A stretch of 64,000 bases of DNA from a virus. Positions 5,560-28,029 of this stretch are shown here, piece by piece (positions within the stretch are counted from its first letter, which is position 1; every line of letters begins with the position of its first letter). The translations under genes and the position numbers were made by a program. The stretch is taken from the IMG/VR virus record IMGVR_UViG_3300048839_000489, positions 1 to 64,000 of that record. One strand, given 5' to 3'. The notes under the pieces are model-generated. The model was not told where the DNA came from and did not search any database. It saw only the letters and a list, made by a program, of their open reading frames with translations.

Positions 5560-5600
5560 AGGGCTAATCAAGTTTATTGCTTCATCAAACTTATACCCCT

Positions 5601-5629
5601 ATTATACACCGTAAAGCTGATGGTGTCAA
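5601..5629 (-). promoter_or_regulatory. sigma70-type promoter (leftward), consensus hexamers
   Basis: Minus strand reads GCCC-TTGACA-17 nt-TATAAT-AGGGG and faces the rightward promoter. Confidence 0.7.
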
Positions 5630-5664
5630 GGGCAGTACATTAGAATAACATTAGAAAAGGAAAA

Positions 5665-6474: not shown

Positions 6475-6475
6475 A

Positions 6476-6930: not shown

Positions 6931-7133
6931 AGTCAGGCATAAAGTGTCCAGAGTGTAATAGTTGTTTGGATGTTATATGGATAATGCCAAACAGATTTTA
7001 TCATTGCTGGCTGTGTAAAGATTTTTATAATAACATAGACAAGAAAATAACTAAGATAAATATAGAGGAGACCTTGGGTGTGCCAAAGGAAAGTTTGGAA
7101 TCCCTGCTAGAGAGTTACTATGAAAACTATTAA
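6927..7133 (+). CDS. zinc-ribbon protein
   Basis: CPECNSC ... CWLCKD; ATGA overlap with the upstream gene. Confidence 0.55.
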   Translation: MKSGIKCPECNSCLDVIWIMPNRFYHCWLCKDFYNNIDKKITKINIEETLGVPKESLESLLESYYENY

Positions 7134-7228
7134 AAACTCTGAGAACTACGAAAAGATTAGAAAGAAGAAACTTGACAAAAAGAAAACCAATGACATAAGA
7201 AAAAGTCGAAGGGATAAGGAGGTTAGGC

Positions 7229-7930: not shown

Positions 7931-8141
7931 ATGCTCTAAATGTGGGCATGTGTTTGATGAGTCAATTCCAATGCATAAGTATGCCGAGATTGATAGGAAT
8001 CACAAAATGAAGTTCAAATGCCCAAAGTGTGAACAACTAATGAATCCAGCCAGAGTTCTTTCAACAGTACCTATAGTTTTCAAGGGCAAAGGGTTTTACT
8101 CAACTGATAATAGGAAAAAAGAAGATGTCGATGTTGGTTGA
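7908..8141 (+). CDS. FmdB-like zinc-ribbon protein
   Basis: YTFRCSKCGH ... KCPKCEQ; overlaps both neighbouring genes. Confidence 0.65.
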   Translation: MMASYTFRCSKCGHVFDESIPMHKYAEIDRNHKMKFKCPKCEQLMNPARVLSTVPIVFKGKGFYSTDNRKKEDVDVG

Positions 8142-13728: not shown

Positions 13729-14046
13729 TTATACTCCTTTCACGTTTTCTGATAGAAAAGCTTCCGCTCTGGAGCAGATACCCGCAAAGTACTCGTCGAT
13801 GTAATTCTGACTCGGTGAGAACTTTTTCATAAAATCGCGGTCGCCGTGCTCCCACATCTCAAATTCGACATCGGAGGTGGAGTAAAACTTCAGATTTCCA
13901 ATCCAATTGTTTATGGTGTTGAGATGGCCTCTGAGATCGTGAATCTTACCAGACCCGCAGTATTTCTCAAAGTGAGACAGCTTTTCGGATAGGTTCTTGA
14001 GTCTGTGCAGATGGTGGTCAAACTTGAGGTCTTTTCCCTTAGCCAT
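13729..14046 (-). CDS. hypothetical protein (start uncertain)
   Basis: The track ORF extends to 14163. The ATG at 14046 (MAKGKD...) sits 4 nt before the stop of an alternative upstream ORF. Confidence 0.5.
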   Translation of the reverse strand: MAKGKDLKFDHHLHRLKNLSEKLSHFEKYCGSGKIHDLRGHLNTINNWIGNLKFYSTSDVEFEMWEHGDRDFMKKFSPSQNYIDEYFAGICSRAEAFLSENVKGV

Positions 14047-14251
14047 CACGTAGTCTCTTTGAAACCCTTCTCCAATGTTTAAAGTCAAAGAGGATGGAGT
14101 ACATAATCGCCCCAGAGATTTTCTCTCCATTAACATTCCAGTAGCCTGGAAACATCTTCGCACTTATACGAAAGAGCCGAGTATTCAGCCTTCGAGCTAC
14201 TTGCACAGCACCAACTAGAGCTAGAAATACCGTTATGCTAAACGTCAACAT
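14039..14251 (-). CDS. possible small membrane protein (alternative frame)
   Basis: MLTFSITVFLALVGAV... with GAGG 9 nt upstream. Competes with the N-terminal extension of 13729-14163. Confidence 0.35.
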   Translation of the reverse strand: MLTFSITVFLALVGAVQVARRLNTRLFRISAKMFPGYWNVNGEKISGAIMYSILFDFKHWRRVSKRLRDG

Positions 14252-14762
14252 CGCTTTCATCCTCACTTTCTAATGGAGTGTTTATGGTCTTCCAGGAGGA
14301 AAACTCCATTTTATACTCTCGAGTCGGGAAGCTACTTCCAGCCACTCCGGTCATCCATCCATATCGAGATAGTGGAAAGAATACCGTTCTGTGAACAACG
14401 GAGCAGTAGTGGCACGAGATCACAGAATCCTGAGTTAAGTTCCACATGGAATCCATTACCTCAAAAATTGTGATTTCAGGAGAGAAAAGCTTACAGTGTC
14501 TCCAGATGTCCAGCGAGGAGCGGTACTTTCCTGGAGGGGTTTCTGGCTCCACGGAGACAACTCCATCCACGATCTCTACAGAACAGTAATTTATGGAGGT
14601 GAGCAGACATTTGTACACAAGGAGATCAACCCCCCGCAGATTTTGACCCTTACTGTCGTTGAGAAGTGCCTCCTCAGTCAATGGGTTAGACTCTCGACTT
14701 AAGTAAGAACGAAATGCGAGATCTGAGGTTTTGTTTCTCGAAAGGTAATCGAGAACCTTCAA
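14238..14762 (-). CDS. hypothetical protein
   Basis: 174-aa ORF; TTG start with no RBS, overlapping the TGA of a 13-codon mini-ORF. Confidence 0.55.
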   Translation of the reverse strand: MKVLDYLSRNKTSDLAFRSYLSRESNPLTEEALLNDSKGQNLRGVDLLVYKCLLTSINYCSVEIVDGVVSVEPETPPGKYRSSLDIWRHCKLFSPEITIFEVMDSMWNLTQDSVISCHYCSVVHRTVFFPLSRYGWMTGVAGSSFPTREYKMEFSSWKTINTPLESEDESDVDV

Positions 14763-14796
14763 TCGCCGAGCTTGAACAGAGGAAGAAAATCTTTTC

Positions 14797-15219
14797 TCAT
14801 CTATTGTTGCTCTCCTCTTCGTAATACTGAATGGTCTTGACGAAGAACTTATTCATGTTACCTCCGTGATAGTTGATAACGGAGGAGAACATGTGATAGC
14901 CAAGCTGAGCGATCATCTCTTCACGATCTTCTGGAACGTTGGCAAGAGAGAACATAAGCTGAGCGTGCCCAGAGTGGGCGCAGAATTTCTCTGCGTAATT
15001 GATGGCGGCGAGAAATTGTATGGTTCCGAGATCCTGAATTCCTGTCAGGACGAGTGTGGAGCAGTTCCCTGGGAACTGAGATATCTCCGATCCATGAGCC
15101 CCGTGGAGATAGGTTGAACCTCCAGAGTCCGACCCATGAAAATCAAGCCCGCTGTACTCCTCGAAGTCTCCTATGAAATCCTCGGCATCAAAAATGTAGT
15201 AGCCTTGAAAGTCTCCCAT
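14797..15219 (-). CDS. hypothetical protein
   Basis: The ATG at 15219 overlaps the upstream stop (TAATG); the track N-terminal extension is Arg-rich and looks like junk. Confidence 0.6.
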   Translation of the reverse strand: MGDFQGYYIFDAEDFIGDFEEYSGLDFHGSDSGGSTYLHGAHGSEISQFPGNCSTLVLTGIQDLGTIQFLAAINYAEKFCAHSGHAQLMFSLANVPEDREEMIAQLGYHMFSSVINYHGGNMNKFFVKTIQYYEEESNNR

Positions 15220-15533
15220 TAGTCGTCCTCTCCCCAAAACGAACCAACGAGGTCGTCTTCTTCTGGATCGATATTGTCCACATCGTCTTGGAGCCACTCG
15301 AGATCTCGAGGCTCTACATTACGAATAACTCTGCGGTTGGAGTTTTCGATATCTACAATCCGCACATTCAGAGTTCCATCGTCATTGTAGGACTCGACTA
15401 CAACCTCCTCTCCGGTCGATTTGAGAGTGAAGGACGGGTTAACATCCTCGTCAACAACGAGAAGGTCTACATCATGATCGATGAAAACCACCTCCGGAAT
15501 ACCTCCAACAATTCTGATAACAACCTTAGCCAT
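15219..15533 (-). CDS. hypothetical acidic protein
   Basis: 104-aa ORF. Confidence 0.6.
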   Translation of the reverse strand: MAKVVIRIVGGIPEVVFIDHDVDLLVVDEDVNPSFTLKSTGEEVVVESYNDDGTLNVRIVDIENSNRRVIRNVEPRDLEWLQDDVDNIDPEEDDLVGSFWGEDD

Positions 15534-15542
15534 AGTGCCTCC

Positions 15543-16190
15543 TTAATCCAAAAAGTCGTGACTGAATGCGTCAAGCATGTCGAGATTATAATACAAGACT
15601 CGAGCCAACGACTCTCGAATCTGTTCCGCAGACGGAACCATAAGTTCCGAGGGATCATCTGTCATAGTGTTGCCGAATGCTCCATTTCTCGGATTACACA
15701 GACGAGCCGCTGGCAAGAATGGAGCTCGAATAACAGCCACTCCAATACGATAGTCGTGACTGTTGCTGTTGCCGATGGGAATAATGGAGAACCATCTCGG
15801 AGCACCTCTGAAGATGTTAGACCCGTCTTTCTTCGCGGCTGATACGGGAATAAACTTGTGAGGTGTTACATTGAAAGTTGTTCCGAACTGAATCCCAATA
15901 ACCCCAAGAATGAGGTCAATGAAATCGGCTCGGTCTCGGTACTCCTCGATGCGCAAGGAACGACTCGAGAAATACTCAGCCACCAACTTCTCAATGTCGG
16001 AAAGACCCGCCAACAATTTTGGATCAGGCTTCTTCTTACCGAGCCCGACAGACTCAGCCCAGATGCGTGTGTCTTCGGAGATGATGTCAACAGCCCGTAC
16101 AAAGAGAGCTTCGTCACGAATCGCACTCACGAAGTCGTCAACACTCAACTCACCTCGAAGGTGTTGTAATTGCTTTCTGTTAAGAGGCAT
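15543..16190 (-). CDS. hypothetical protein
   Basis: 215-aa ORF, co-directional and tightly packed. Confidence 0.65.
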   Translation of the reverse strand: MPLNRKQLQHLRGELSVDDFVSAIRDEALFVRAVDIISEDTRIWAESVGLGKKKPDPKLLAGLSDIEKLVAEYFSSRSLRIEEYRDRADFIDLILGVIGIQFGTTFNVTPHKFIPVSAAKKDGSNIFRGAPRWFSIIPIGNSNSHDYRIGVAVIRAPFLPAARLCNPRNGAFGNTMTDDPSELMVPSAEQIRESLARVLYYNLDMLDAFSHDFLD

Positions 16191-16208
16191 TTAATAAACT
16201 CCTTTCTT

Positions 16209-17036
16209 TTATATCTCACCGGCTTCGACAGTTCTCATGGCATCGAGGAAACTTTTTTCAATGCCGAGAATGGTCTGATACTCAGAATAGAATCTGAGTT
16301 TGTATCTCGTGAACGAGGACACGGAGCTTCCGAGTGTTGTTTTGTAATCTACTGGAGGAGCGCCGCCCTGAGTTGTTGAGTACCAGAGGTACATGAGCTG
16401 ATCAATAATGGACTCATAATCGAGTCCGAAGTAGTTGGGAGACGCCTGATAGTTTTCAGTAGCCTCGTGATTGATCAACTCTTCCTGAGTTTTCGCAAAC
16501 TCAATGTAGTCTCTTACATGGAAGAATCTCTTTGGATAGCCGATCATCTTTGCTATAGAGACTAGTCGGAGAAGGAGAATGGCTAGGCTTACATTAAGAC
16601 CCTCCAATCCGAGTACTCGACCGAAAATAGAGAACCTCTTGTCTCCGTCTGGGAGAATGTACACTCCGAAAGAGTTCATTACGGTAGATACCTCTGCCGC
16701 AACCCAAGCGAGATCTTCTTTCGAGGCTGGAAATAATCCGGAGTGGACATTGACTACATATCGGAGAGTTACCGACATGGCGGAGCTAATTTGCACCAGC
16801 CCGAGCACCTTGGCAAATTTGGAGGTGAAAGTCTCTCGGCAAGTTGTGGAGTCTCTGTATACCAGAAAGTCCTCTACCCTTTTGTTGCGAGCTTCGAGAA
16901 TCTTTGTTGTAAACTCCATGTAGCCGAGAGCGCGGTCTGCGTGTGGCTCAGCAAATCCAAACTCCGTAGCGGCTTTAGCCAGGTCTAACCCCGGACTCTG
17001 ACTCGCCACTATTTGAAAGTGAATCGAATCTTTCAT
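16209..17036 (-). CDS. hypothetical protein
   Basis: 275-aa ORF immediately upstream of the amidohydrolase gene. Confidence 0.65.
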   Translation of the reverse strand: MKDSIHFQIVASQSPGLDLAKAATEFGFAEPHADRALGYMEFTTKILEARNKRVEDFLVYRDSTTCRETFTSKFAKVLGLVQISSAMSVTLRYVVNVHSGLFPASKEDLAWVAAEVSTVMNSFGVYILPDGDKRFSIFGRVLGLEGLNVSLAILLLRLVSIAKMIGYPKRFFHVRDYIEFAKTQEELINHEATENYQASPNYFGLDYESIIDQLMYLWYSTTQGGAPPVDYKTTLGSSVSSFTRYKLRFYSEYQTILGIEKSFLDAMRTVEAGEI

Positions 17037-17039
17037 GAT

Positions 17040-17888
17040 TTATTCTTCCTCCTCTTCATTATCCTCTTCGCCATCGTCCTCATCGAAGTCGGTTTCGTCC
17101 TCAACCTCCTCCTCCTGAAACACGTCTTGAGATGGTCGCTGTCTAATCAAAATGTCCGCCAATCGGAGAGCTGCAGAGCTCGCCTCATCGGCGCTGTGTG
17201 CTGTGGTCTTGAATGTCCACCCAGATGAGAGATCACTCTCCGGCTCGTAGATGGGCACTCCTTTTTCAACCCAGTCTTTAACTTTGTTAAAGAACCAGTG
17301 ATATTTATCATCCTCAAAAAACTCAGGATGAAATTGAGTAGCTAAGATTCTTTTTCCCCACATAGCCATCTCAACGAGATCATCTCCTGGATGCACAGCC
17401 AGTGGAACAAAATCGAGTCGTTCCATCTGTTGTTTGCCGGTGAATATTACCTGACCACCGCTCCGTAGGATTCCTTGATGGTGAAGCGAGTTGACTTTGA
17501 CCAAATCGGAGAACACATTCTTGGTTCTGTGTCTGAGGTCGTGAATGTGATCGTGAATCATGTCGAACTGAGGAAGATCCTGAATCAATGTGCCACCGAG
17601 AGCAACGTTGATGAGCTGGAGACCACGACAAACACCTAGAATCTTGGTGCGTGAGTTTCTCACTGCCACATCGAAGATTCCAAACTCAGCCTCGTCCCGT
17701 CGGTCATTGATACCATAAGCCCCACTCACGGTTTCACCGTAACGAGAAGGACTTACATCCTCGCCACCAGTAAAGATGAGCAGATCGATATCAGGTGTAA
17801 AGTTCTCATGCGATCCGAGAACCTTAGCATCGGGAAAAGCTCCGAGGAAGGAATACGATAGAGCGTGCGTTGCAAAAGCTACCTTCAT
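17040..17888 (-). CDS. class I glutamine amidotransferase-like / peptidase C26 gamma-glutamyl hydrolase (PuuD-like) with polyacidic tail
   Basis: Catalytic signature GVCRGLQLINVALGG (Cys), LHHQG, QFHPE (His-x-Glu). The C-terminus is EEEVEDETDFDEDDGEEDNEEEEE. Confidence 0.8.
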   Translation of the reverse strand: MKVAFATHALSYSFLGAFPDAKVLGSHENFTPDIDLLIFTGGEDVSPSRYGETVSGAYGINDRRDEAEFGIFDVAVRNSRTKILGVCRGLQLINVALGGTLIQDLPQFDMIHDHIHDLRHRTKNVFSDLVKVNSLHHQGILRSGGQVIFTGKQQMERLDFVPLAVHPGDDLVEMAMWGKRILATQFHPEFFEDDKYHWFFNKVKDWVEKGVPIYEPESDLSSGWTFKTTAHSADEASSAALRLADILIRQRPSQDVFQEEEVEDETDFDEDDGEEDNEEEEE

Positions 17889-17904
17889 TTACACTCCTTT
17901 CCAA

Positions 17905-18819
17905 TTAAACAAGGGATTCGACAGTTTTCAGGACTTCGAGCGCCTGTTCTTGATCGACCTTGATGATGGATTCGATACCGGCACGGACGAGTTCTTCGCT
18001 GAGGTTGTCATACAAACCTCCAATGAGAAGACTCTGAATCCCAACCTCAGCCCATCCAAAGACTTTGGAGGCGATGTCTCGGCTCGATGTCCAGCGAACT
18101 GACGGAGTTCGATATTCAACTCCGGACTCGGAAAATTCGATGTCGTTGAATTTTCCATTATACTTCTGGACTCGGAACTTTCCTGGGAGTCCGTAACGGA
18201 AAACACGCTCACGTTCAAGGTCTGCCACATCTGAGTAGGCAGTAGCCGCAAGACCGGCAGTGAGAGCCAACGAACGAATCGCGATCAGAGGACTCTCTTG
18301 GATTTCCTTCACGCCGGAGATGTGAATGTGCCCTCCAGCATAGCGCCACGGGTGGAGGGAGGCATCAAAGTCTTTCGATCTGCGTGGTGTTTTGAGCATA
18401 TGGGAGAATGCGTCGAGATCTGGATCACATCCAAAGCGAGTTGCAAACTTGAAATCACCGCCCTCGCCGATCCAGCGACCAACTTCCCACTGAATGGAGG
18501 GCAGAGCAAGGAGCTCGGGATTCACTTCGTAGCGAGAGAGGAAGGTCTCTGCGAAGACCTTACGAGCGTGATTGATGCGGTCAAACAAGTCCATCCAGCT
18601 CGAGCTTGGGGGAAGACTCATTTCAAATGCCGCACCATCCTCATGAATTTTCACACCTTCAACTTCCATGAAGATGGGATGGGAGCCGTTTTCCTTGACC
18701 TCGGCTCCAAAGTTGCGCCGGAAAACAACGGGAGGCATAGCGTACAGGACTCCTTCCTTGTCATAGCCAGCGAAGAATTCGGGATCAGCCCCCCAGAGAA
18801 GATTTGCTTTTTTCGACAT
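17905..18819 (-). CDS. glutamine-synthetase/GCS2-like carboxylate-amine ligase (phage amidoligase), paralog 1
   Basis: Ordered motifs GADPEF, GGHIHISG and VEYRT match the G-x-[ED]-x-E / H-x-H / E-x-R triad of this fold. Confidence 0.6.
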   Translation of the reverse strand: MSKKANLLWGADPEFFAGYDKEGVLYAMPPVVFRRNFGAEVKENGSHPIFMEVEGVKIHEDGAAFEMSLPPSSSWMDLFDRINHARKVFAETFLSRYEVNPELLALPSIQWEVGRWIGEGGDFKFATRFGCDPDLDAFSHMLKTPRRSKDFDASLHPWRYAGGHIHISGVKEIQESPLIAIRSLALTAGLAATAYSDVADLERERVFRYGLPGKFRVQKYNGKFNDIEFSESGVEYRTPSVRWTSSRDIASKVFGWAEVGIQSLLIGGLYDNLSEELVRAGIESIIKVDQEQALEVLKTVESLV

Positions 18820-18837
18820 TTTATACTCCTTTCTTTT

Positions 18838-19302
18838 CTACACTTTGAACGGTTTTGAGATGACTTCGGTCATCGGAATAAAAAGCTGCTCATTCTTCGA
18901 GAGACCGAGCATAGATTGATAGTCCCTGAGAAGTTCCGGTCGAGGATGTGAAGCTACGGAAGCTCTTTTGAAGATTGTGTCAACACACACTTTGCACACA
19001 CAGACAACGCGCTCGTGGGTAAAGAGATCTGAGATCGGGTGAACTTGCCCACAAATCATGCATGGAGCTTGAAGATGCCCATGCGCACTTCCGCTCGTAA
19101 TCTGAGCTCCACACTTGGTGCACTCCCACACAGGAGTCACTTGAGCCCGACTGTCGAGGCGAAGATCGGCAACGACTCTCGAAATGCCCCCTCCATCAAT
19201 GGAGAACGATGGGGCAACCATCTTAAGTGCTTGTGAGAGATCAAGCACGAGGGATCCACCACATCTTTGGTGGGAGAAAAGGGTAGAGCTGTTAACAGAC
19301 AT
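18838..19302 (-). CDS. Cys-rich (multi zinc-ribbon) protein
   Basis: CTKCG ... CMICG ... CVCKVC. Confidence 0.55.
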   Translation of the reverse strand: MSVNSSTLFSHQRCGGSLVLDLSQALKMVAPSFSIDGGGISRVVADLRLDSRAQVTPVWECTKCGAQITSGSAHGHLQAPCMICGQVHPISDLFTHERVVCVCKVCVDTIFKRASVASHPRPELLRDYQSMLGLSKNEQLFIPMTEVISKPFKV

Positions 19303-19316
19303 GAAACTCCTTTCGT

Positions 19317-20336
19317 TTATTTGTCAACTTTTCCAAATACCACATCTTCAGGATCGAGACCGAGTTCCTCGGCTACCTCTTCTCTCGTCCTCACAGTCCC
19401 AGGCTGTAATCCTACCAGCATGAGTTCAGCAACCCTGTCCCAGACGAGATTCTTATAGACGTTACCGAGAATGTCAATGACAAACTCTACAAGATCTGTC
19501 TCGCCACTAAAGGTGATGTCACCTCCATGACCCACAAATTCGGACAGCATAACTGCGCCTCCAGAGTCGATTGTTTTCGGAGCATCGGTATACAGAGGGG
19601 TAGTGTCCAAGCTAAGTTGTTTGATCTTGGAGAACCCACCGAGAGCGTCGATGTCCTTGTAGCCATCCAATCTCAATTCCAGAGGGCGCAATCCATCCTC
19701 CATCTCGACCTTGAATCCATTCCACGGGCCGACTGTTGAGGTGGTGAAATCTTGGTAGATCCCAAATTTCTTCGATGCGAGAAACGACAGAGCAGCCTTT
19801 CCAAGCTCACTCCATTCTGAACCTGGACGAATGAGCTCATTCTTGCCCATCCATAGAAGCAGAGCTCGCATCACAGTCCACGCAGAGGCATCCGTCAAGC
19901 AGTAAGCAGGAGTCGTGGTAATCTCTCCGGTCTTGGGGTCTACATGCTCGAAAACAAAAAGGGTAGAACCCAATCTGAAGTGAGGAGTGAACTCGTAGAA
20001 ACTTTCTTCCGTTAGGACGACCTTTGAGCGAGTGTCCCATAGAAACCACTCGTCAATCTTGATGGCGTTGGCGAGTCTCGCACCTTCAATTTCTTCCCAC
20101 TGCTCTTCCATAAGATTGGAGGCACTTTTCGCACCCGTGATGGGAATATCTGCTCCGCTCGGGAGATAAAAGCTCGCGCTTTCAACGCCCTCACATTTCA
20201 GAGCCATGACGGTGAGCGTTCCACGGTGGTAACATCTCACCGCTCGGCTTGTTGTGAACAACTTCGCATCAGACTCTCTCGATGGTGAGAAACTCCTCAG
20301 CACGTTTGGTTCTGTATGAACTCTTGTAATTCTCAA
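19317..20336 (-). CDS. hypothetical protein translationally coupled to the RuvB-like gene
   Basis: The TTG start overlaps the upstream TGA (TTGA), with AAGGAG 5 nt upstream; 339 aa. Confidence 0.6.
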   Translation of the reverse strand: MRITRVHTEPNVLRSFSPSRESDAKLFTTSRAVRCYHRGTLTVMALKCEGVESASFYLPSGADIPITGAKSASNLMEEQWEEIEGARLANAIKIDEWFLWDTRSKVVLTEESFYEFTPHFRLGSTLFVFEHVDPKTGEITTTPAYCLTDASAWTVMRALLLWMGKNELIRPGSEWSELGKAALSFLASKKFGIYQDFTTSTVGPWNGFKVEMEDGLRPLELRLDGYKDIDALGGFSKIKQLSLDTTPLYTDAPKTIDSGGAVMLSEFVGHGGDITFSGETDLVEFVIDILGNVYKNLVWDRVAELMLVGLQPGTVRTREEVAEELGLDPEDVVFGKVDK

Positions 20337-21100
20337 ACTAAACTCCTTCCTTTGCTGGAAATAGTAATCATCTTTTTATACAGCAACACCGGCTCTACGT
20401 AGAACCGAATGGATGACTCATCTAAGTGCATCATTGTCGAGATTGTCTTTAGTGACGCAGTACCTCCAAGCTCCTTGAGAGCGGCTATATAGCGTCTAGC
20501 CAGAGAATCCATTCCGTCATCTATACCGAACATGTAGCTCATAAACTTTTTGAACCCGTCTCCTGAAAGAGAGGCGACCTGATCTGGATTCATCATGTTT
20601 ATCTTCGAGCATATTGATCGAATAGTTCTAGGATTGCCAGCAGAGCTCTCAATAATATAATCGAGGATGTGGTCTCCAAAAGCAGCTCCAAGATTTGTTC
20701 TGCAAATCTCCCTAAGCTCCTCTTTAGAATAGTCTTCAAAGATGAGCTGCGTGCATCTATTGGACAGAGCTTCTGGTATAACTGACACCTCGTTACTAGC
20801 AAGCACGAGGATGTGCTTGCCTCCGTCAATTATAGGATACAACCACTCCGGATTCTTCATGACATGAATTTCATCAATGAAGACAACTCTCTTTTGGAAC
20901 CTCGCAGTTACGTTGTCAGCGATACAGTACTCAAAATCACCGCTTGTGAGGTAATTGCACAACATAAAAGCCATCCTCGTTTTCCCCCAACCACTTGGAG
21001 CCCTTAGTAGGAACGACATGTTCAACTCAGGATTCTCACGTAGCTTTGGAAGATAGTTAGAGAGTTGCCTCATTATTGTGGATTGACCGATGAAGTACAC
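20333..21100 (-). CDS. RuvB-like AAA+ ATPase
   Basis: FIGQ, Walker A APSGWGKT, Walker B VVFIDEIH, sensor block AGNPRTIRS, and a RuvB-type C-terminal winged helix (ELGGTASLKTIS...YVEPVLL...SSKGR). GTG start with GAGGAG upstream. Confidence 0.75.
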   Translation of the reverse strand: MYFIGQSTIMRQLSNYLPKLRENPELNMSFLLRAPSGWGKTRMAFMLCNYLTSGDFEYCIADNVTARFQKRVVFIDEIHVMKNPEWLYPIIDGGKHILVLASNEVSVIPEALSNRCTQLIFEDYSKEELREICRTNLGAAFGDHILDYIIESSAGNPRTIRSICSKINMMNPDQVASLSGDGFKKFMSYMFGIDDGMDSLARRYIAALKELGGTASLKTISTMMHLDESSIRFYVEPVLLYKKMITISSKGRSLV

Positions 21101-21870
21101 TATTTTATCTCCTCGATGTGATTAAGAATGCGATTACCATACATCTCCAGAGTGTCCTCATTTTCAGAAACTCCAGGAGCGGTATTAAATTCGATGACTC
21201 GATAAATTTTATTCATAGAATCCCATCCCACATCGAGTCTACCGTACTTAGCTCCAGAGCTATCATAGAAGGACTTGACCACCGGCTCCAATTTAGGATA
21301 TTTCCCAGGGTCTACCCTTGAGAATCTATAACCTCTATGGGAGTTTCTTATTGGAAACTTCTCCTCAGTCTCGCCATCTCTGAGCTTCTTCATGACCTTG
21401 TGAATAACTCCATCAATGACATGAACACCGAGCTCAATAGAAAAGTTGTACCACGGACTCCACCAAGCGCCAGAAAACCTGGAGAACTGTTCAGCGTCCT
21501 CGCACACAACAGCACCTACACCACCCATACCGGTGAGAGTGGTTCTAACGAGGACTGGAAACTCTTTCGGCTCTTCCTTGTGAAACTCAACAGTTGGGAC
21601 ACCATCTTCCACGAGTTTGCGAGATAACCTCAGCTTATTCGAGCAGGTATATATTACTTCTCGTGAGTTCAAGCTAAAGTCCATCTTAGGAGAGTGCACA
21701 AAGTTGGACTCACTATTACCCCATCTAAAGAAGGCATAGTCCCTGATGCGCTCAGGAGAGCTGGTAAATCGCACAGACCAGAAACTCGAGCTATCATTGA
21801 GGTATTCCGAAAGAGCTCTCGCAGACGGACTGAGAAAAGTTCTTGTGAGAATGTAAAACCTCTTTTTCAT
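21100..21870 (-). CDS. ATP-grasp family ligase
   Basis: NKLRLSRKLVEDGVPTVEF, PVLVRTTLTGMGGVG, and the Mg-binding block VIEFNTAPG. Confidence 0.7.
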   Translation of the reverse strand: MKKRFYILTRTFLSPSARALSEYLNDSSSFWSVRFTSSPERIRDYAFFRWGNSESNFVHSPKMDFSLNSREVIYTCSNKLRLSRKLVEDGVPTVEFHKEEPKEFPVLVRTTLTGMGGVGAVVCEDAEQFSRFSGAWWSPWYNFSIELGVHVIDGVIHKVMKKLRDGETEEKFPIRNSHRGYRFSRVDPGKYPKLEPVVKSFYDSSGAKYGRLDVGWDSMNKIYRVIEFNTAPGVSENEDTLEMYGNRILNHIEEIK

Positions 21871-23096
21871 TACTTCCTCAAGGCTACGGTCTCTGATACA
21901 AGCTGCTCGATCTTGGCCTTCTCATTCAAAGTCCAGGGGAACTGAGCTCCAAACTTCTTGTAGATGAACAGAGGAATCCCAGACGTTCCGAGAGCCTTCT
22001 TTACGGATTTCCTGAGTTTCTTCGGTACGGACAGCTTAGGAATCTTGTTCTTTACGAAGTCCTCAAGATCGTCGATGCAGAGTCTCGAAAAGCCTACTCC
22101 ATACAGCTGGTAGAAGATTACATCGAGATCCGTTATTGATAAGAGGTACTGGTCGGAGAACACATTGAGCTTGTCCAGGAGTAGCCATTCTCTTTTGGAC
22201 ACATCCACACGTGGAGTTCGAGAAGCTCCTACATTACCACCGCCCCATACAAATGGCTTTTCAGTCTCTTCGATAGCTCCAATTTTCTTGATGTCAAGCT
22301 GTTCGAGAAGATAGACGGAATCTCTTGGGATCTCCTCCACTTCAGTGAAAATATGCAAGCCTTCGTACAGAGATTGTGCAACCTGAGTAATTATGGAGGA
22401 TGCCATCTCCAGAGTTGCCTTCTCCGTAGCAATAAGGTAGCCGAGCTGCTCATCACATTCAAGAAATGTCTCTTGCTTCTCGTTGGTTGCCCACGAGTAT
22501 TTTTTGTACACCTTTGCTATGTGGAGCTTGGCAATGGTTCCCCTCGCGGCGTAGAACTCACCTGTCTGCTTGTCGAGGATGAGGAAGGCGAATTTTCCCG
22601 AGAACTTTTCCATCGCCTTTCTCAGCAAAGAGTCCACAGGTTCTTCTGGATGAGCTGCCGCCTTGGCTTCAAGCTCTTCGAGGAACCTCAAAGAGTCTGA
22701 TTTGACATTACCTTCGGCAGAGGTATATGATTCGCCTTCTTCCCAGAGTCTTCCGTTGTGAGCCAAAGCGAATCTGACACCCTCGAATGGATGAGCGTTA
22801 CCATCGGAAACCTCCATATTCTTGGAGGCATCTCGTACATGACTGAGAATGGGCAATGGAGCTTTGTAGCCACGCTTGTCAGTCGTGGCACTACGTATGA
22901 GCGTTCCAAGGTTTATTAACGCGTCACCGGCTACTCCGGTTTTCCACACGTTTGACACACTCTGCTTGTTTTGATTAAGAGTGAAACTCCCTGTACCGTG
23001 CCGATGTCCGGCAGAGGCGGCGACTTGAATGAGAATGGTCGTCGCAATTCGATTGAGTTCTTTATCGTTGAGATTAGAAACTAGTAATTGACACAT
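21870..23096 (-). CDS. Ntn-hydrolase / class II glutamine amidotransferase-like protein with C-terminal extension
   Basis: Starts Met-Cys (MCQLL), as required for an N-terminal Cys nucleophile; HNGRL block. Confidence 0.65.
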   Translation of the reverse strand: MCQLLVSNLNDKELNRIATTILIQVAASAGHRHGTGSFTLNQNKQSVSNVWKTGVAGDALINLGTLIRSATTDKRGYKAPLPILSHVRDASKNMEVSDGNAHPFEGVRFALAHNGRLWEEGESYTSAEGNVKSDSLRFLEELEAKAAAHPEEPVDSLLRKAMEKFSGKFAFLILDKQTGEFYAARGTIAKLHIAKVYKKYSWATNEKQETFLECDEQLGYLIATEKATLEMASSIITQVAQSLYEGLHIFTEVEEIPRDSVYLLEQLDIKKIGAIEETEKPFVWGGGNVGASRTPRVDVSKREWLLLDKLNVFSDQYLLSITDLDVIFYQLYGVGFSRLCIDDLEDFVKNKIPKLSVPKKLRKSVKKALGTSGIPLFIYKKFGAQFPWTLNEKAKIEQLVSETVALRK

Positions 23097-24212
23097 CTAT
23101 ATGAGGCTCCTGTCTTGTGATGCAAAGTTATGAATGTTTGTCACTCCGGATGAGGGAGCCTCATCTAGAGTGTCCATGCCCACGGATCGAGATAAAGCAC
23201 AGCTCATGGTAAATCTTTCGAGGTGTGTGAGTGTTATCGTCTTGGTGAGGCTGGGTTGGGGTGTTTTTTCAATGAGTTTCCGAATCCCATTCTCGAATCG
23301 ATCCGTCATTGGATATTCCATCCCAAGCCTCGAAGACACCTCCATGAACTTATCCAGGAACTCGTGATAGACTCCATCTGGATTCTTTTGAAAGATGTCA
23401 ATCTGAGGAAGGGAATCCACAAATCTCCGAGGGGCTTTCAACATGAACTCAGCCGTATGTCTACTCAAACTGGCAACACTCAGAATGTCCTCAACGTCGC
23501 TGGTGAAGTTGCAATGTCTGAACTCAACAGTTCCCCTCAAAAGCTGAGACAACAGATTCACTCCAAAATATCGAGCCGGATGGTATCTCTGAACATCTCC
23601 AAGATAGACTCCAAAGCATTTCCAGAAATCCTCAAATCCCTCAGACTCGAGCGCCTTTTCTGGAGCAATAACGGCATACCCGCCTGAATCCAATCGCACA
23701 GCTGGGGGGTTGCGGAGTGATCTCGCATACGCTGAGTTGTTTATGGAGCCCCTATATTCTCTACCCATGCCCGCTATTTTGTAAAATAGCGCCTCGATTT
23801 TCATGCCAGTGGCGAGTGCTGACTTGGTGAATATGAAGTCTTTAGGGAATCCAACGTGAAAGTGGATCGAGGATCTTGGCGAGAAGATTTCACCACCACC
23901 CACTAAAGCGTTCATAGCAAGTATAGACATTTTGGAGATGTCTTCGAGACTCAGAGGTCTTGATACGAGCTCAAACCCGACTACTTCCCTCTCACTTCTT
24001 CTCGCTGGAGGGGAGTTTCTTACGTATCGCGACCCGAGAAAGACTTTCGCCGACTCTCCTAAACTGAACACTTCACTTTCCACGCTCGCATCGTGAGTTA
24101 TGGAGGAGAGCATTTCAGTTAGAGCTCTTGGCAAGCTTCTTTCTAGAGCCGTGATTGAGGCAGTAACGCCCTCAATCTCAACTCCGATTGTCTTTATGAT
24201 GGAGCCTGTCAC
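23097..24212 (-). CDS. glutamine-synthetase/GCS2-like carboxylate-amine ligase (amidoligase), paralog 2
   Basis: Motif triad GVEIEG, SIHFHVGF, VEFRH. Confidence 0.65.
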   Translation of the reverse strand: MTGSIIKTIGVEIEGVTASITALERSLPRALTEMLSSITHDASVESEVFSLGESAKVFLGSRYVRNSPPARRSEREVVGFELVSRPLSLEDISKMSILAMNALVGGGEIFSPRSSIHFHVGFPKDFIFTKSALATGMKIEALFYKIAGMGREYRGSINNSAYARSLRNPPAVRLDSGGYAVIAPEKALESEGFEDFWKCFGVYLGDVQRYHPARYFGVNLLSQLLRGTVEFRHCNFTSDVEDILSVASLSRHTAEFMLKAPRRFVDSLPQIDIFQKNPDGVYHEFLDKFMEVSSRLGMEYPMTDRFENGIRKLIEKTPQPSLTKTITLTHLERFTMSCALSRSVGMDTLDEAPSSGVTNIHNFASQDRSLI

Positions 24213-24652
24213 TTGTAGAACCTCCTTATAAATTCTCTTACCGTCAGCTTGACCGAGCCGCCCGCTCTCGTATATACAACAACGGACTCGACGATAGGAG
24301 TGGGTATTGAGTGTTTTACTCCGGAAATTAGAACGGTCAGAAACTCTTCGGGCGTCTTATCGAGGGCTACACGTTCTGCCACAAATACACGACCCTCAGA
24401 AACATGGATCTCAAAGTGATTGTTACGAGGATACCGGATGATTTCCTCGACAAGCTCATTTACAGCTCTGAAAGAGCTTTTAAAGCTGAGCCCTATGTAG
24501 TTGATAGACAGAACAATCACTGAGGCTGAAAGAACGGGATTGTTTAGCCGTAAAGCAACCACTCCTGCGTATGTAAAGAACAAGAGAAGCGAGGTCGCCA
24601 CTATAGCTCTTGACACCAGCTTGGCAATTCTCAGATTCATTTCATTTGCCAT
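24209..24652 (-). CDS. membrane protein (2 TM + soluble domain)
   Basis: 147-aa ORF overlapping the upstream and downstream genes. Confidence 0.6.
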   Translation of the reverse strand: MANEMNLRIAKLVSRAIVATSLLLFFTYAGVVALRLNNPVLSASVIVLSINYIGLSFKSSFRAVNELVEEIIRYPRNNHFEIHVSEGRVFVAERVALDKTPEEFLTVLISGVKHSIPTPIVESVVVYTRAGGSVKLTVREFIRRFYK

Positions 24653-25122
24653 TCTGGAAACTTGAGGCCAAACTCGTCCATGTATTCGCGGTCGTAGTTA
24701 TCTCCATCACCAATCCAAAAAACTCTTTTATGAACTGTGCCGCAGAATTGAGTGGATATATCGCCAGCCTCCTCGTTCAGATGGTAGAGAGCGTTGAGAA
24801 TCTCTCTGAATTTAATGTCTCCGAAATAGAATCGGTACAGCCTCCATAGATCCAAAGCACTTCTTGATGCTCCAGCTCTGCATTGGCGAGAGCCATTCTT
24901 TGCGTATGCGGTGGGGACGCTCGAGCTAACTTTCATCAGATCGAAAACTTTCTGAGCTACAGTTCGATCATCCTTCTTCAAGAGCTCGGCGAAATCGGAT
25001 AGTTTTCTGATCACGGCTTTTTGCTCATAGCGACCACCACTATATTCAAAATTGTACTCAGTCCACCTCGTTTGAAATCTTATAGGGCTGACGCTCTTGT
25101 TTTTCAAATTAGGCTTTTTCAA
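24637..25122 (-). CDS. hypothetical protein
   Basis: TTG start with GGAGGT 5 nt upstream. Confidence 0.6.
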   Translation of the reverse strand: MKKPNLKNKSVSPIRFQTRWTEYNFEYSGGRYEQKAVIRKLSDFAELLKKDDRTVAQKVFDLMKVSSSVPTAYAKNGSRQCRAGASRSALDLWRLYRFYFGDIKFREILNALYHLNEEAGDISTQFCGTVHKRVFWIGDGDNYDREYMDEFGLKFPEWQMK

Positions 25123-25297
25123 CTGCTACCTCCTTTACTTCAATTATTTCACTTACAGAGTGAGTGTTTTGAAGAGACAAAATCGCCGTTTCTGGAGACC
25201 ACGCTCTTCTTCGTATTGTTTTTTTAATCCCCACAGAGTCTTTATATGTAATCTCGAAGGTTTTGATGTTAACCTCGGAGAGTATAAAGCAATGCAA
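25109..25297 (-). CDS. hypothetical small protein
   Basis: 62-aa ORF; overlaps both neighbours, start uncertain. Confidence 0.4.
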   Translation of the reverse strand: MHCFILSEVNIKTFEITYKDSVGIKKTIRRRAWSPETAILSLQNTHSVSEIIEVKEVAVEKA

Positions 25298-25715
25298 TCA
25301 GCAGGATGGACAGAACGGTGAGCCCAACAATCACAAACCGTCTATACGAGATTTTAGGCACTTTGATCAGAGGCTTCTCGATCCCGTACCCGCTGAATAC
25401 GTTGATCGCCCCAGTTTCCTCATTGAGATAGCCGCAGAATCTCGCAGTCACGTTGTAAGCCTCAGAAACTCCACTCATACGGCTCACCGAGTGAATCTCA
25501 TAAACACCGACCCTCCCGCTTTCCATGTTGCGAGAAATGAAGTCACCTCTATAGAGAGGTATCCAATGGAACACAGTCCAGTCAACCTCCTGAGTAACGA
25601 GATCGTCATACTCGTATGGACTATAACCATTGCCCTCGATGTTGTGCCCCCAATACATTTTGTGAGCAAAATCGTGAATTACGGGCGTTCCAGATCGAAT
25701 GAGTTTGAATGACAT
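25269..25715 (-). CDS. hypothetical protein with C-terminal TM anchor
   Basis: The ATG at 25715 has AGGAGA upstream; C-terminal FVIVGLTVLSILLIALL. Confidence 0.6.
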   Translation of the reverse strand: MSFKLIRSGTPVIHDFAHKMYWGHNIEGNGYSPYEYDDLVTQEVDWTVFHWIPLYRGDFISRNMESGRVGVYEIHSVSRMSGVSEAYNVTARFCGYLNEETGAINVFSGYGIEKPLIKVPKISYRRFVIVGLTVLSILLIALLYTLRG

Positions 25716-25719
25716 TTTT

Positions 25720-25908
25720 CTATTTCTCCTTCTCAGATGTGGTGCTATTGAGAGACTCAACTATGGACTCTGCAACCAATTTGGCTGGATAATCAATAAC
25801 ATGCTGCTCAACAATTACTACTACGATACCCTGAGCATCGTAGATGATGAATCCATTCACCTCTTCATCTTCGACAACACTCACAGGGAGCACAATCTTT
25901 GTTGTCAT
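25720..25908 (-). CDS. small acidic protein
   Basis: The ATG at 25908 has GGAG upstream; the track N-terminal extension is implausible. Confidence 0.5.
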   Translation of the reverse strand: MTTKIVLPVSVVEDEEVNGFIIYDAQGIVVVIVEQHVIDYPAKLVAESIVESLNSTTSEKEK

Positions 25909-25909
25909 A

Positions 25910-26071
25910 CTACTTGATCTCCATAAAAAACTTCTCCATCGTCTTAACATCAATGGGATGAACAAATAACATCCCAAGAGTTACAATGGTGACAGCCGCT
26001 CCAATCAAGTTGACGATGGAGAACAGCACGATTACGACATTGTTATGGACTTTCATCGAGTTTCGTTTCAT
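25910..26071 (-). CDS. small membrane protein (53 aa)
   Basis: ATGA overlap with the upstream gene; GGAGGT RBS; TM helix VVIVLFSIVNLIGAAVTIVTLGMLF. Confidence 0.45.
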   Translation of the reverse strand: MKRNSMKVHNNVVIVLFSIVNLIGAAVTIVTLGMLFVHPIDVKTMEKFFMEIK

Positions 26072-26304
26072 GATTTTGTTACCTCCGAGACTTTATAATA
26101 TTCCGCTTTGAATTCTACTAAAACAATTTCAGTGAATAAATCTCTCTGAAATGAGGACAAGCTGACATCGGCTGCATATTGAGCATTCTCCTTTGATAAG
26201 TACGGAGTTGCGTTGAATACGGAGGTTACAAAAAACTCGCCAGATTTATAAAACTTGGTTAAGTCTTTGTTGGCGAGGACAAAACGTACAGTTCCTGTGT
26301 TCAT
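26068..26304 (-). CDS. hypothetical protein
   Basis: 78-aa ORF. Confidence 0.55.
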   Translation of the reverse strand: MNTGTVRFVLANKDLTKFYKSGEFFVTSVFNATPYLSKENAQYAADVSLSSFQRDLFTEIVLVEFKAEYYKVSEVTKS

Positions 26305-26323
26305 AAGTTACTCCTGCTCTCTT

Positions 26324-26761
26324 TCAGCCCGCATATACAGGCTCCATTACGAGTATTCCATTGTCAGACAGGAATTTATAAAAACCCTCATCTTTATACA
26401 CCGACTCTGTAGTGAAGGCTGAGTCCGGAATATCTTGAGGATCCATAAGTACGGATTCGTTTTCAGTTCTCAATAAGTGCCCATTGGATGACACTTCTTC
26501 TTTAGAGAAAAACCAGTAATAAGTGGCGACCTTATGATGTGCACCGTACTCATGTCGAGTTCGATAACACACCCTTCTGGTTAAAAGATACTCTTTCAGC
26601 AACTCAGGAAAAGTCTTTGCTACTGACTTTGGAATGATGAGCACCTTAACTACCTCGAAGTCTCCGTACGACTCGTGATTATGCATAAGCAAGCACTCAA
26701 CTTCCAACTTCGACCCTTCCTTCACCACGGCGTCTGGAGTGTAGATTTTGATTGATTTCAT
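26324..26761 (-). CDS. hypothetical protein
   Basis: 145-aa ORF. Confidence 0.6.
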   Translation of the reverse strand: MKSIKIYTPDAVVKEGSKLEVECLLMHNHESYGDFEVVKVLIIPKSVAKTFPELLKEYLLTRRVCYRTRHEYGAHHKVATYYWFFSKEEVSSNGHLLRTENESVLMDPQDIPDSAFTTESVYKDEGFYKFLSDNGILVMEPVYAG

Positions 26762-26772
26762 TTTATTTTCTC

Positions 26773-27129
26773 CTAATTCAACTCAATACCGAATACGTTC
26801 TTAACAAAAGAGCTCACATCGTTCATGAACTTTTGAGCGGACTCAACGCTGGGGAAATCTTGAGAAATCTCAAGTCCAGGATTCGTGAGTTTCGGAGTGA
26901 ATGTGTTAAAGTGCTCTGGATGTGACAAAGCCCACATACCCTGAATCTCCATCAACGATAGTGTTCTACCTCCTAAAACCACCTGAACGGAGTGAATATC
27001 TTTCCTCTTGTAGTATGCACTTACAAGAGGCTCACCGTCAGCTCCGAAGATGTCCTTTGCATGTACCAGAACCTCCCTCGTTTCCGTAAAAACATTCAAA
27101 GCCTCTACAAATATTTTGATGCTTATCAT
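26773..27129 (-). CDS. hypothetical protein
   Basis: 118-aa ORF. Confidence 0.6.
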   Translation of the reverse strand: MISIKIFVEALNVFTETREVLVHAKDIFGADGEPLVSAYYKRKDIHSVQVVLGGRTLSLMEIQGMWALSHPEHFNTFTPKLTNPGLEISQDFPSVESAQKFMNDVSSFVKNVFGIELN

Positions 27130-27142
27130 TGACCAATTCTCC

Positions 27143-27919
27143 TTATAATGATTTCAAAAATTCTTCTACAACTCTTATTGAGTTAGGGCTGGACGCAAGA
27201 CCTCGATACTCGAACCGGTCTCTGTGAAATCTGAGCTTCTCAATAAAAATGCGCTCGAGTCTGAACGGCACTCTTTTGTGCAGGTTTCCCAGAATCCCAT
27301 TTTGGAGCCAGTATTCATTTGAAAACCTGGCTGAGGGTAAAAAATTACCTCCAAAGGAGATGTGAATGCCAAGCGGAAGTACGTACAGCCCCTTGACTAC
27401 GAATGGAACGAGTTTTCCACCGAAACGCTCAATCTGATTCAGGGCTACTCGTAAATCCTGTAGTACGAGCTCAGCAACTTCTTTATGAGTTTCTCCTACA
27501 AACACCGGACTTCTGTACTCCTTAATGAACCCGCCGATACCGTCGAATCCGTAGTGAGTATAAAGAGGATCTCCCTGCATCTGTTTGACGAAAGCACTGT
27601 CGTGAGCTCCGTCTTTTATACAGAACTCGATCTCGTACCCCAATGAGTACTGGTCTACGTATTTAACGGAGACTTTGTTCTTGGAAGATCTCTCTAGAGG
27701 AGCTTCGTAGTTCTCCGGTATGCCGTACCCACAGGAGATGCAGGTGTAAATTTCCAGATAAATCTCAGTTTCTGAGCGCTCTCTTTCCAGTCGATTGTTG
27801 TGAGTTCCGCACGCTGGGCATTTCTCACTAAAATAGCCAAAAGACCGGTTGTTCTTTCGGAAGTTTTGACGAGGATTTCGATTGCCTCTGGTTCGCCTTA
27901 CTTTTCTCGCTACTGACAT
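27143..27919 (-). CDS. zinc-ribbon-fused GS/GCS2-like amidoligase, paralog 3
   Basis: Basic N-terminus (RKVRRTRGNRNPRQNFRKNNR), CPACG ... CISCG, then the triad GYEIEF, GIHISFGG, FEYRG. Confidence 0.55.
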   Translation of the reverse strand: MSVARKVRRTRGNRNPRQNFRKNNRSFGYFSEKCPACGTHNNRLERERSETEIYLEIYTCISCGYGIPENYEAPLERSSKNKVSVKYVDQYSLGYEIEFCIKDGAHDSAFVKQMQGDPLYTHYGFDGIGGFIKEYRSPVFVGETHKEVAELVLQDLRVALNQIERFGGKLVPFVVKGLYVLPLGIHISFGGNFLPSARFSNEYWLQNGILGNLHKRVPFRLERIFIEKLRFHRDRFEYRGLASSPNSIRVVEEFLKSL

Positions 27920-27956
27920 GTCTGACTCCTGTTCAGAATTTTGTGATTACAACTAG

Positions 27957-28029
27957 CGCCCTCGGAGAGACTCGAACTCCCAACAATCTGCTTAGAAGGC
28001 AGGTGCTCTGTCCATTGAGCTACGAGGGC
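27957..28029 (-). tRNA. tRNA-Arg (anticodon TCT), solitary second copy
   Basis: Acceptor GCCCTCG/CGAGGGC, D arm GCTCAATGGACAGAGC, anticodon arm CTGC-CTTCTAA-GCAG, T arm GGGAG-TTCGAGT-CTCTC. Confidence 0.9.

Follow-up and report, generated by a model that had tools for sequence, protein, structure and literature searches.

A phage amidoligase cassette expanded by a RuvB-like ATPase and a predicted zinc-ribbon ligase

The amidoligase cassette of cultured phages and its relative in the window

The phiEco32/LUZ24-type amidoligase cassette of cultured phages (Bruynoghevirus; Citrobacter phage CVT22, Zobellviridae; Proteus phage J3S, Grimontviridae) comprises four enzymes encoded on one strand of the early/middle region, a COOH-NH2 ligase, an amidoligase, a class II glutamine amidotransferase (GAT-II) and an ATP-grasp ligase, which are accompanied by a gamma-glutamyl-cleaving enzyme. 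Here we describe the same four enzymes at positions 17040-27919 of the virus record IMGVR_UViG_3300048839_000489 (IMG/VR), of which the first 64,000 nucleotides were analysed; the whole of this stretch is referred to as the window. Judged by sequence comparison, what the window carries is not a new module but the known phage cassette in expanded form, and the features particular to its clade are a RuvB-like ATPase inside the cassette, a third ligase that bears a zinc ribbon, and the fact that no GGCT gene is seen near the cassette. We give an even chance to the view that these enzymes form a cytoplasmic, ATP-driven pathway, which would build, amidate and trim a small gamma-glutamyl-type amide or peptide on some acceptor.

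The phage amidoligase/ATP-grasp/GAT-II cassette was reportedly predicted by comparative genomics by Iyer, Abhiman, Burroughs and Aravind in 2009. An earlier sequence-only reading of the window had linked the locus to these phage neighborhoods, and the link holds, since all four core enzymes are present and co-directional. The novelty that it implied was overstated, however, because the four-enzyme core together with GGCT and/or a C26 peptidase is annotated in many cultured phages. In fact, genome papers already list the cassette genes (PMC3890496; PMC10580990), and the cassette has been described as a putative module for peptidoglycan modification, an idea attributed to Iyer et al. (2009) (PMC11945000; the proposal is repeated in PMC10580990).

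In tblastn searches, the COOH-NH2 ligase of the window finds 131 phage records, 114 of which are Pseudomonas phages (mostly LUZ24-like), and the ATP-grasp enzyme finds 99, mostly phiEco32-like. No near relative of the window was found among 50,697 phage records (megablast and tblastn, with the region, the amidoligase and the terminase as queries), and single-protein scans of IMG/VR gave no matches. The cassette regions of five isolates were examined, namely LUZ24, SU7 (phiEco32-like), Alcaligenes phage QDWS535, CVT22 and J3S. All five carry the four-enzyme core on one strand within ~7 kb, in a stretch that lies just upstream of primase/helicase genes in four cases and upstream of ribonucleotide reductase genes in J3S. 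Homology between the window and the isolates is detectable for the COOH-NH2 ligase (E-values of 1.5e-11 to 5e-5), for the ATP-grasp enzyme (2e-13 to 9e-4; the SU7 and CVT22 genes are homologous to it) and for GAT-II; the isolate amidoligases were matched to that of the window by annotation only. A gamma-glutamyl-cleaving enzyme stands beside the core in every lineage examined, as GGCT (LUZ24, SU7, J3S and the Alcaligenes phage) and/or as a C26 homologue (CVT22, the Alcaligenes phage and the clade of the window). The one hint of function comes from phage FJK.R9, which acquired parallel missense mutations in its amidoligase and GAT genes when experimentally evolved on P. aeruginosa (PMC11450229), an indication that these genes affect fitness.

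Compared with the phiEco32/LUZ24-type cassette, the gene order of the window is different (amidoligase, GAT-II, ATP-grasp and, further on, COOH-NH2 ligase and C26), the middle of the cassette contains, as insertions, a RuvB-like AAA+ ATPase and two clade-specific proteins, and an extra zinc-ribbon ligase is present. A counterpart of the ~190-residue gp17-like protein of LUZ24, SU7, J3S and the Alcaligenes phage is not detectable in the window. No GGCT gene was seen near the window cassette, and the C26 enzyme is the sole one found in the cassette of this clade that is likely to cleave gamma-glutamyl bonds.

In CVT22, eight small open reading frames (ORFs) between the cassette genes (positions 3768-8152 of locus L013) all end in LENE. 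A shared functional peptide or ribosomal tag was considered for these ends and rejected, as the conserved element is a DNA signal, TGGAGAATGAATRA, followed in most of these ORFs by an ATG at or overlapping the stop codon, which corresponds to a Shine-Dalgarno sequence and translational coupling for the next gene.

The region 17040-27919 of the window is a run of minus-strand genes, and an ORF check recovered all six ORFs named in the sequence-only reading, together with every motif quoted for them, at the coordinates given here. In the direction of transcription the order is Amidoligase_2, GAT-II, ATP-grasp, RuvB-like ATPase, a 339-residue protein, a 154-residue protein, COOH-NH2_lig and C26, with neighboring genes from 24212 to 17040 spaced by 0-18 nt or overlapping by 1-4 nt. 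The third ligase gene (27143-27919) lies ~2.9 kb upstream of this eight-gene string, with about seven small ORFs between. The six enzyme genes had been taken for one tightly packed, co-directional string; their common direction is borne out and the tight packing extends over 17040-24212, but the sixth gene stands apart and promoter and terminator scans do not support an operon. The RuvB-like gene and two further conserved genes within the span had been missed, and this trio is the most clade-specific feature of the locus. The G+C content is 0.45-0.50 over the cassette region (14000-24000), as against 0.37-0.42 where the tRNA and nucleotide-metabolism genes lie and in much of the structural region.

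Synteny was examined in related genomes and contigs designated L001, L003/L004, L005, L010, L015 and L016. The eight-gene core at 17040-24212 keeps the same order, at about 25-53% identity, in three independent genomes of ~86-89 kb (L001, L003/L004 and L005). The more distant L015 (87 kb) has the six enzymes and the RuvB-like gene at 28-44% identity, with the ATP-grasp gene ahead of the amidoligase gene, and L016 (77 kb) has COOH-NH2_lig, amidoligase, GAT-II, ATP-grasp (assigned with an hhalign probability of 98.8%), RuvB-like and C26 genes in another order, at 27-34% identity. On L010 (50 kb), the third ligase, COOH-NH2_lig, amidoligase and GAT-II are followed by the contig end. Co-occurrence is accordingly borne out for five of the six enzymes, which are found together in L001, L003, L005, L015 and L016, but the sixth was found in only two of the six other genomes examined.

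These data bear on the simplest alternative, that there is no single pathway and that independent auxiliary genes lie adjacent by chance in the early/middle region. Both the third ligase and the RuvB-like trio are restricted to certain lineages, unrelated neighbor genes are also syntenic among the close relatives, such that the synteny there may reflect overall genome collinearity, and the counts of promoters and terminators are at chance level and yield no operon; no shared promoter motif emerged from the direct-repeat families. However, the same four enzymes recur together on a single strand, in the same compact form, in phages otherwise without detectable similarity, it survives the shuffling of gene order in L010, L015 and L016, and its start and stop codons overlap or abut. 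A chance assembly is, in our judgment, extremely improbable.

The conserved enzymes and the substrates they suggest

The product of 17905-18819 is a type 2 COOH-NH2 ligase of the phiEco32-like, glutamine synthetase (GS)/GCS2-fold kind (PF14395, E 4.3e-6, 26.6 bits against a cut-off of 25), which also matches phrog_3815 ('COOH.NH2 ligase', 1.2e-18) and is homologous to LUZ24 gp16 (4.8e-13). Its residues D12, P13, E14, H164, H166, E235 and R237 are invariant, as are the motifs G.DPE, FGC.PD, GGHxH and G.EYR. The product of 23097-24212, whose gene abuts that of GAT-II, is a GS-like carboxylate-amine ligase of the Amidoligase_2 family (PF12224, E 1.7e-5, 25.3 bits against a cut-off of 22), with E12, E14, H117, H119, E230 and R232 invariant (ExE, HxH and ExR). 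This gene is syntenic in L001, L003 and L005 at 39-41% identity, and its product has 26 metagenomic homologues, several of them on contigs of ~86-89 kb and several with a precomputed PF12224 assignment. A 147-residue ORF (24209-24652) overlaps the start of the amidoligase gene; its hydrophobic N-terminal half resembles two transmembrane helices, and no homologue is detectable in the related genomes.

The class II (Ntn) glutamine amidotransferase (21870-23096; GATase_6, E 3.2e-6, above the curated cut-off), with Cys2 as the nucleophile, consists of a GAT-II domain in residues 1 to ~200 and a C-terminal region of ~200 residues of unassigned fold. Conservation covers the Met-Cys start, R, NAHPF, HNG and DS, in LUZ24 gp19 as well, and every glutamine-binding residue is retained. 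In the family profile, residues 1-180 align from Cys1 to the glutaminase domain of GlmS (7.8e-13) and to PurF (1e-9), and EgtC is reached only weakly (E 0.08). In the EgtA/EgtC and MurT/GatD pairs, a carboxylate-amine ligase has a partner of amidotransferase fold, which removes a gamma-glutamyl group in the case of EgtC (a GAT-II) and donates ammonia in the case of GatD. Compared with EgtC, the window enzyme is closer to the glutaminase domains of GlmS and PurF and carries the unrelated C-terminal region. The pairing of ligase and glutaminase in the cassette parallels the amidation of iso-glutamate by MurT/GatD, which counts in favor of a cell-wall substrate.

The ATP-grasp gene (21100-21870) encodes an amino-acid ligase of the RimK/Ddl type (phrog_2599, RimK-like, 3.5e-20; the Pfam match is marginal only), in which the motifs R..L.G..G.G and E.N.APG are conserved in alignment with relatives and with the LUZ24 and SU7 homologues. 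Against the PDB, the family profile matches an alpha-L-glutamate ligase (8.5e-6), Ddl/D-Ala-D-Ala ligases (1.3e-4), RimK and cyanophycin synthase. The D-Ala-D-Ala ligase matches, beside those to RimK-type enzymes, fit the hypothesis current in genome papers, where it is credited to Iyer et al. (2009) (PMC10580990; PMC11945000), that the module remodels peptidoglycan precursors. The ligases would then rebuild or amidate the stem peptide of cytoplasmic precursors, at gamma-D-Glu and D-Ala-D-Ala-type bonds, in order to block superinfection or to prepare the wall for lysis. Domain scans of the cassette and its surroundings, on the other hand, reveal no Mur ligase, transpeptidase or lipid II-binding domain, inspection of the sequences by reading shows no signal peptide or membrane anchor in any cassette enzyme, and the cassette stands beside replication genes, ~14 kb from the gene for the GH25 endolysin (37921-38628). 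Peptidoglycan remodeling is regarded here as unlikely.

The product of 17040-17888 is an enzyme of the Peptidase C26/class I amidotransferase fold (PF07722, E 2.7e-25, above the curated cut-off), whose Cys-His-Glu triad is intact and whose GxCRG, HHQ and HPE motifs are conserved in alignment with relatives. The nearest solved relatives in the PDB are Lin1909, PuuD (1e-3) and a Pseudomonas 'probable glutamine amidotransferase', which we take to be the gamma-glutamyl-polyamine hydrolase SpuA. Weak NCBIfam matches are to gamma-glutamyl-GABA hydrolase (PRK11366, 6.5e-5, far under the equivalog cut-off) and to gamma-glutamyl-CDP-amidate hydrolase, and the protein is placed by these comparisons in the C26 gamma-glutamyl hydrolase group at family level only. 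At its C-terminus (17040-17114) there is a 25-residue acidic tail, QEEEVEDETDFDEDDGEEDNEEEEE, which ends in EEEEE, and the C26 homologues of L001 and L003 likewise have acidic stretches after the catalytic domain; the tail might mimic the poly-Glu substrate of a RimK-like ligase or might serve as an interaction tail. A second, shorter C26/GATase-I paralogue (205-219 residues, ~30% identity to the window C26) is found in some relatives (L003, 6248-6907; L005, 11345-11962), and in L005 it is placed between the amidoligase and GAT-II genes.

As in the PuuA/PuuD and PauA/SpuA systems, the C26 enzyme of the window is related to PuuD and adjacent to a GS-fold ligase. The parallel with PuuA/PuuD that had been drawn from the sequence alone therefore stands for its hydrolase half, by virtue of PF07722 and the PuuD match, but not for its ligase half, since none of the three ligases matches Gln-synt_C (PF00120) or PuuA-type models in Pfam or NCBIfam. 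On a logic of this kind, polyamines or some other small amine would be gamma-glutamylated and de-glutamylated, and the host polyamine pool would be changed during DNA replication and packaging. The identity of the closest solved and curated C26 relatives, PuuD and the Pseudomonas enzyme, is consistent with this scheme, as are the common use of GS-fold ligases to gamma-glutamylate amines and the presence of 1-naphthylamine GS among the Foldseek matches of the third ligase. The lack of any PuuA-type ligase argues against it, however, as does the failure to find an amine oxidase or aldehyde dehydrogenase partner among the neighbors scanned; furthermore, the pathway needs neither an ATP-grasp enzyme nor a GAT-II. 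We consider a polyamine pathway decidedly unlikely.

The third ligase, the RuvB-like ATPase and its companion proteins

In the product of 27143-27919, a tail of basic residues at the N-terminus is followed by a zinc ribbon of the form CxxC...CxxC (residues ~34-63) and by a minimal core that resembles glutamine synthetase (~90-258). It has no amidoligase match in Pfam, NCBIfam or PHROG, these libraries recognizing the zinc ribbon only, and none of 12 family members has a Pfam match; an exhaustive HMMER search of 1.84 billion representatives identified 18 relatives. None of the residues E96, E98, H186, S188, E237 and R239 varies among 12 sequences, and the family shares the invariant motifs GxExEF, DG, KExRS, GxHxSxG and RxExR. 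When an AlphaFold (AF2) model (pLDDT 76.7) was compared with the PDB by Foldseek, nearly all of the top 50 matches were glutamine synthetases, with 1-naphthylamine GS among the best (best E 4.6e-4, prob 1.0, TMq 0.34-0.42, the low TM-scores resulting from the much larger size of the target and from the zinc ribbon of the query), and the viral structure library BFVD returned a phage 'Amidoligase enzyme'. Comparisons of the family with the two other cassette ligase families by hhalign are insignificant, but as the control comparison of Amidoligase_2 with COOH-NH2_lig, both supported by Pfam, is equally insignificant, this negative result carries no weight. On the strength of the model and the invariant motifs, the protein is accepted as a predicted fusion of a zinc ribbon with a minimal GS-fold ligase, and its family, which is not described in Pfam, is a previously unrecognized GS-like family. 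All six family or fold assignments made in the sequence-only reading prove correct, five by profiles and this one by Foldseek and invariant motifs, and the residues of the GS/GCS2-fold motif triad that it had pointed out are invariant within each of the three ligase families.

The third ligase is near the cassette in all three places where its context is visible, the window, L010 and L015, and lies 6-8 kb from it in the latter two. A metagenome scan for further contexts returned only the known contig, and bacterial genome scans (queries A6 and A2, the latter being Amidoligase_2) returned nothing. The first 30 residues (27830-27919) include 10 K/R and no D/E, a basic tail that is kept in the closest relatives only and not across the family. 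Immediately upstream of the ligase gene is a second tRNA-Arg(TCT) gene (27956-28029). A PADLOC search for defense and anti-defense systems gave the zinc ribbon as its sole match.

Wedged between the ATP-grasp and COOH-NH2_lig genes are the genes of the RuvB-like ATPase and its two companions. The ATPase gene (20333-21100), which overlaps both of its neighbors by 1-4 nt, encodes a short AAA+ protein of 255 residues, in which both Walker motifs, A and B, are present and which ends in a winged helix of the RuvB type (RuvB_C, 5.4e-11). It matches RuvB in the PDB (1.8e-8) and in NCBIfam (8.5e-17), but with 61 bits against the equivalog cut-off of 282 (NF000868), and with 255 residues against ~330, it is by these comparisons RuvB-like and not a full-length RuvB equivalog. 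Homologues of 24-26% identity to the 339-residue protein (19317-20336) occupy the corresponding place in L001, L003/L004 and L005. The protein has no match in Pfam, PHROG, NCBIfam or the PDB, and only two database entries were retrieved, for which a two-sequence AF2 model (pLDDT 38) was discarded; hhalign comparisons with the gp14-, gp15- and gp17-like positional analogues of LUZ24, SU7 and J3S were negative, and a possible counterpart in L015 is indicated by an hhalign E-value of 6.5e-4 (prob 27%). The Cys-rich 154-residue protein (18838-19302), in which C14, C61, C64, C81, C84, H96, C103 and C106 are invariant in four genomes, is probably a double zinc ribbon, to judge from this pattern, and its CxxC pattern recurs in a possible counterpart in L015 (hhalign E 8.8e-5, prob 60%).

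Six divergent genomes retain the RuvB-like ATPase within their cassettes despite changes in gene order (the window, L001, L003, L005, L015 and L016; the loci are at 12255-14390 in L015, weak companion counterparts included, and at 13716-14474 in L016), whereas the two companions are traceable in only some of the six. The ATPase is absent from the cassette loci of LUZ24, SU7, CVT22, J3S and the Alcaligenes phage. The ATPase and its companions are, on this comparison of genomes, linked to the cassette in a clade of ~77-89 kb phages.

PafA and Dop, the GS-fold ligases of the Pup system, act together with an AAA+ ATPase. The window resembles this system in the genomic linkage of GS-fold amide ligases to an AAA+ protein, and a protein might accordingly be tagged with a peptide or amino acid, in a Pup/PafA- or RimK-like manner, with the AAA+ protein engaging the tagged or to-be-tagged macromolecule in this clade. 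Such tagging would agree with the glutamylation of a protein C-terminus by ATP-grasp enzymes of the RimK type, with the poly-acidic end of the C26 enzyme (...NEEEEE) and with the retention of the ATPase in the cassettes of six genomes. This ATPase does not resemble Mpa, however, being closer to RuvB and clamp loaders, with a winged helix of the DNA type, than to the Mpa/ARC unfoldases; Pfam gives no Pup_ligase or Pup-like match, and no proteasome match was obtained. Furthermore, a conserved small tag gene was not found across the lineages, and the cassettes of LUZ24, SU7, CVT22 and J3S work without an AAA+ protein. Tagging is quite improbable on this evidence.

The nucleic-acid character of the clade-specific proteins is relevant to another possibility, an amide-linked hypermodification of phage DNA or tRNA. 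In contigs from viral metagenomes, amidoligase and amidotransferase genes have been found in association with genes for thymidine hypermodification (Lee et al., 2021; PMC8989533), the cassette always adjoins replication or nucleotide-metabolism genes, the clade adds a DNA-type RuvB-like ATPase and zinc-ribbon proteins, and the third ligase has a basic tail and adjoins a tRNA gene. Against this, the basic tail is not conserved across the third-ligase family, and the hallmark domains of thymidine-hypermodification clusters (dUMP/dCMP hydroxymethylase, 5-HMUDK and aGPT-Pplase), as well as TET/JBP and TGT/DpdA domains, were not found in the ~76 of ~86 kb that could be annotated for this genome type from ORF scans of the window and precomputed Pfam calls for L006 and L007, which reach beyond the end of the window and upstream of it, respectively. 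In addition, RsaI, HpaI, EcoRV, SmaI and HaeIII all cut the DNA of phage tf, a LUZ24-like carrier of the cassette, and this DNA was cloned and directly sequenced by the Sanger method (PMC3517423). DNA or tRNA hypermodification must be considered very improbable.

A broader form of the same idea is that in the ~77-89 kb clade the cassette has been rebuilt around a macromolecule, so that the RuvB-like ATPase, the double zinc-ribbon protein, the 339-residue protein and the zinc-ribbon ligase would act with the four core enzymes to place an amide-linked adduct, gamma-glutamyl or peptidyl, on phage DNA, tRNA or a nucleic-acid-bound protein. This proposal is highly doubtful; if true, it would constitute a new class of ATP-dependent macromolecule modification.

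A candidate pathway and its genome setting

In glutathione metabolism and the gamma-glutamyl cycle, a ligase of the GCL/GCS2 fold, an ATP-grasp glutathione synthetase and GGCT act on one molecule, and these are the same fold classes as those of the cassette. The phage cassette differs from the glutathione pathway in having two or three ligases and a GAT-II, and its proteins have no GCS2, GshA or glutathione synthetase match in Pfam or NCBIfam. The preferred build, amidate and trim pathway follows a comparable logic, in which the individual steps and their order are drawn by analogy. The cassette would act in the cytoplasm of the infected cell, expressed alongside replication and nucleotide-metabolism genes. 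Each of the three GS-fold ligases would activate a carboxylate with ATP as an acyl-phosphate and then couple it to an amine, the carboxylate being most plausibly the gamma-carboxyl of glutamate or a carboxyl of the acceptor, and the RimK/Ddl-like ATP-grasp enzyme would add one or more alpha-linked amino acids. GAT-II could supply ammonia with which the Amidoligase_2 enzyme, whose gene it abuts, would amidate a carboxylate (as in asparagine synthetase or MurT/GatD), or could cleave a gamma-glutamyl amide (as EgtC does). The C26 enzyme would remove a gamma-glutamyl group as PuuD does, and GGCT could do likewise in LUZ24, SU7, J3S and the Alcaligenes phage. That the chemistry would be of the gamma-glutamyl type is suggested by the characterized relatives of GGCT and C26, which cleave gamma-glutamyl amides, and by GAT-II, which hydrolyzes glutamine, itself a gamma-glutamyl amide.

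Several observations weigh against this pathway, beginning with the possible genome collinearity and the chance-level operon scans described above. The gamma-glutamyl assignment draws on analogy with distant relatives (PuuD, GGCT, GCL and EgtC), no specificity determinants for such chemistry were identified in the cassette enzymes, and both C26 and GAT-II might simply donate ammonia. The third ligase does not lie within 10 kb on either side of the cassette in L001, L003, L005 and L016. Finally, a literature search found no experimental product, target, substrate or phenotype for any cassette member, in agreement with what the sequence-only reading had said of products and targets.

The remainder of the window is plainly that of a phage, with terminase, portal, GH25 endolysin and 12 tRNA genes, as well as ribonucleotide reductase, MazG, NT5C and Toprim primase genes for nucleotide metabolism and replication. 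An array of 11 of the tRNA genes (Cys, Ser x2, Arg, Gln x2, Asn, His, Glu x2 and Thr) occupies 71-4883 on the minus strand. Two DNA methyltransferase genes (5665-6474 and 7229-7930), with a Dam-like match under the Pfam cut-off and an N6_N4_Mtase match at 1.4e-25, adjoin the genes for Toprim, the 5'-deoxynucleotidase NT5C, MazG and ribonucleotide reductase. Genes for an HNH protein, a DUF2828/DUF7788 protein, an RlaP nucleotidyltransferase and DNA polymerase A lie upstream of the window, as seen in L007. Within the structural/packaging module is a glycosyltransferase gene (54507-55697; phrog_2170, 5.5e-40), and just past the end of the window (L006, 2834-4032) are a Glycos_transf_2 and a Methyltransf_11 gene; the glycosyltransferase genes of this module may serve virion protein glycosylation.

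The cassette is carried by many phages, among them the LUZ24-like Pseudomonas phages, whose genus supplies candidates for therapeutic use. Since cultured carriers already exist, the window does not make the function of the cassette easier to test, and it ranks below them as an entry point for solving that function. What it does add is a record of how the cassette varies, an unrecognized family of GS-like ligases, and a link to an AAA+ ATPase of nucleic-acid type that could guide the choice of substrate.

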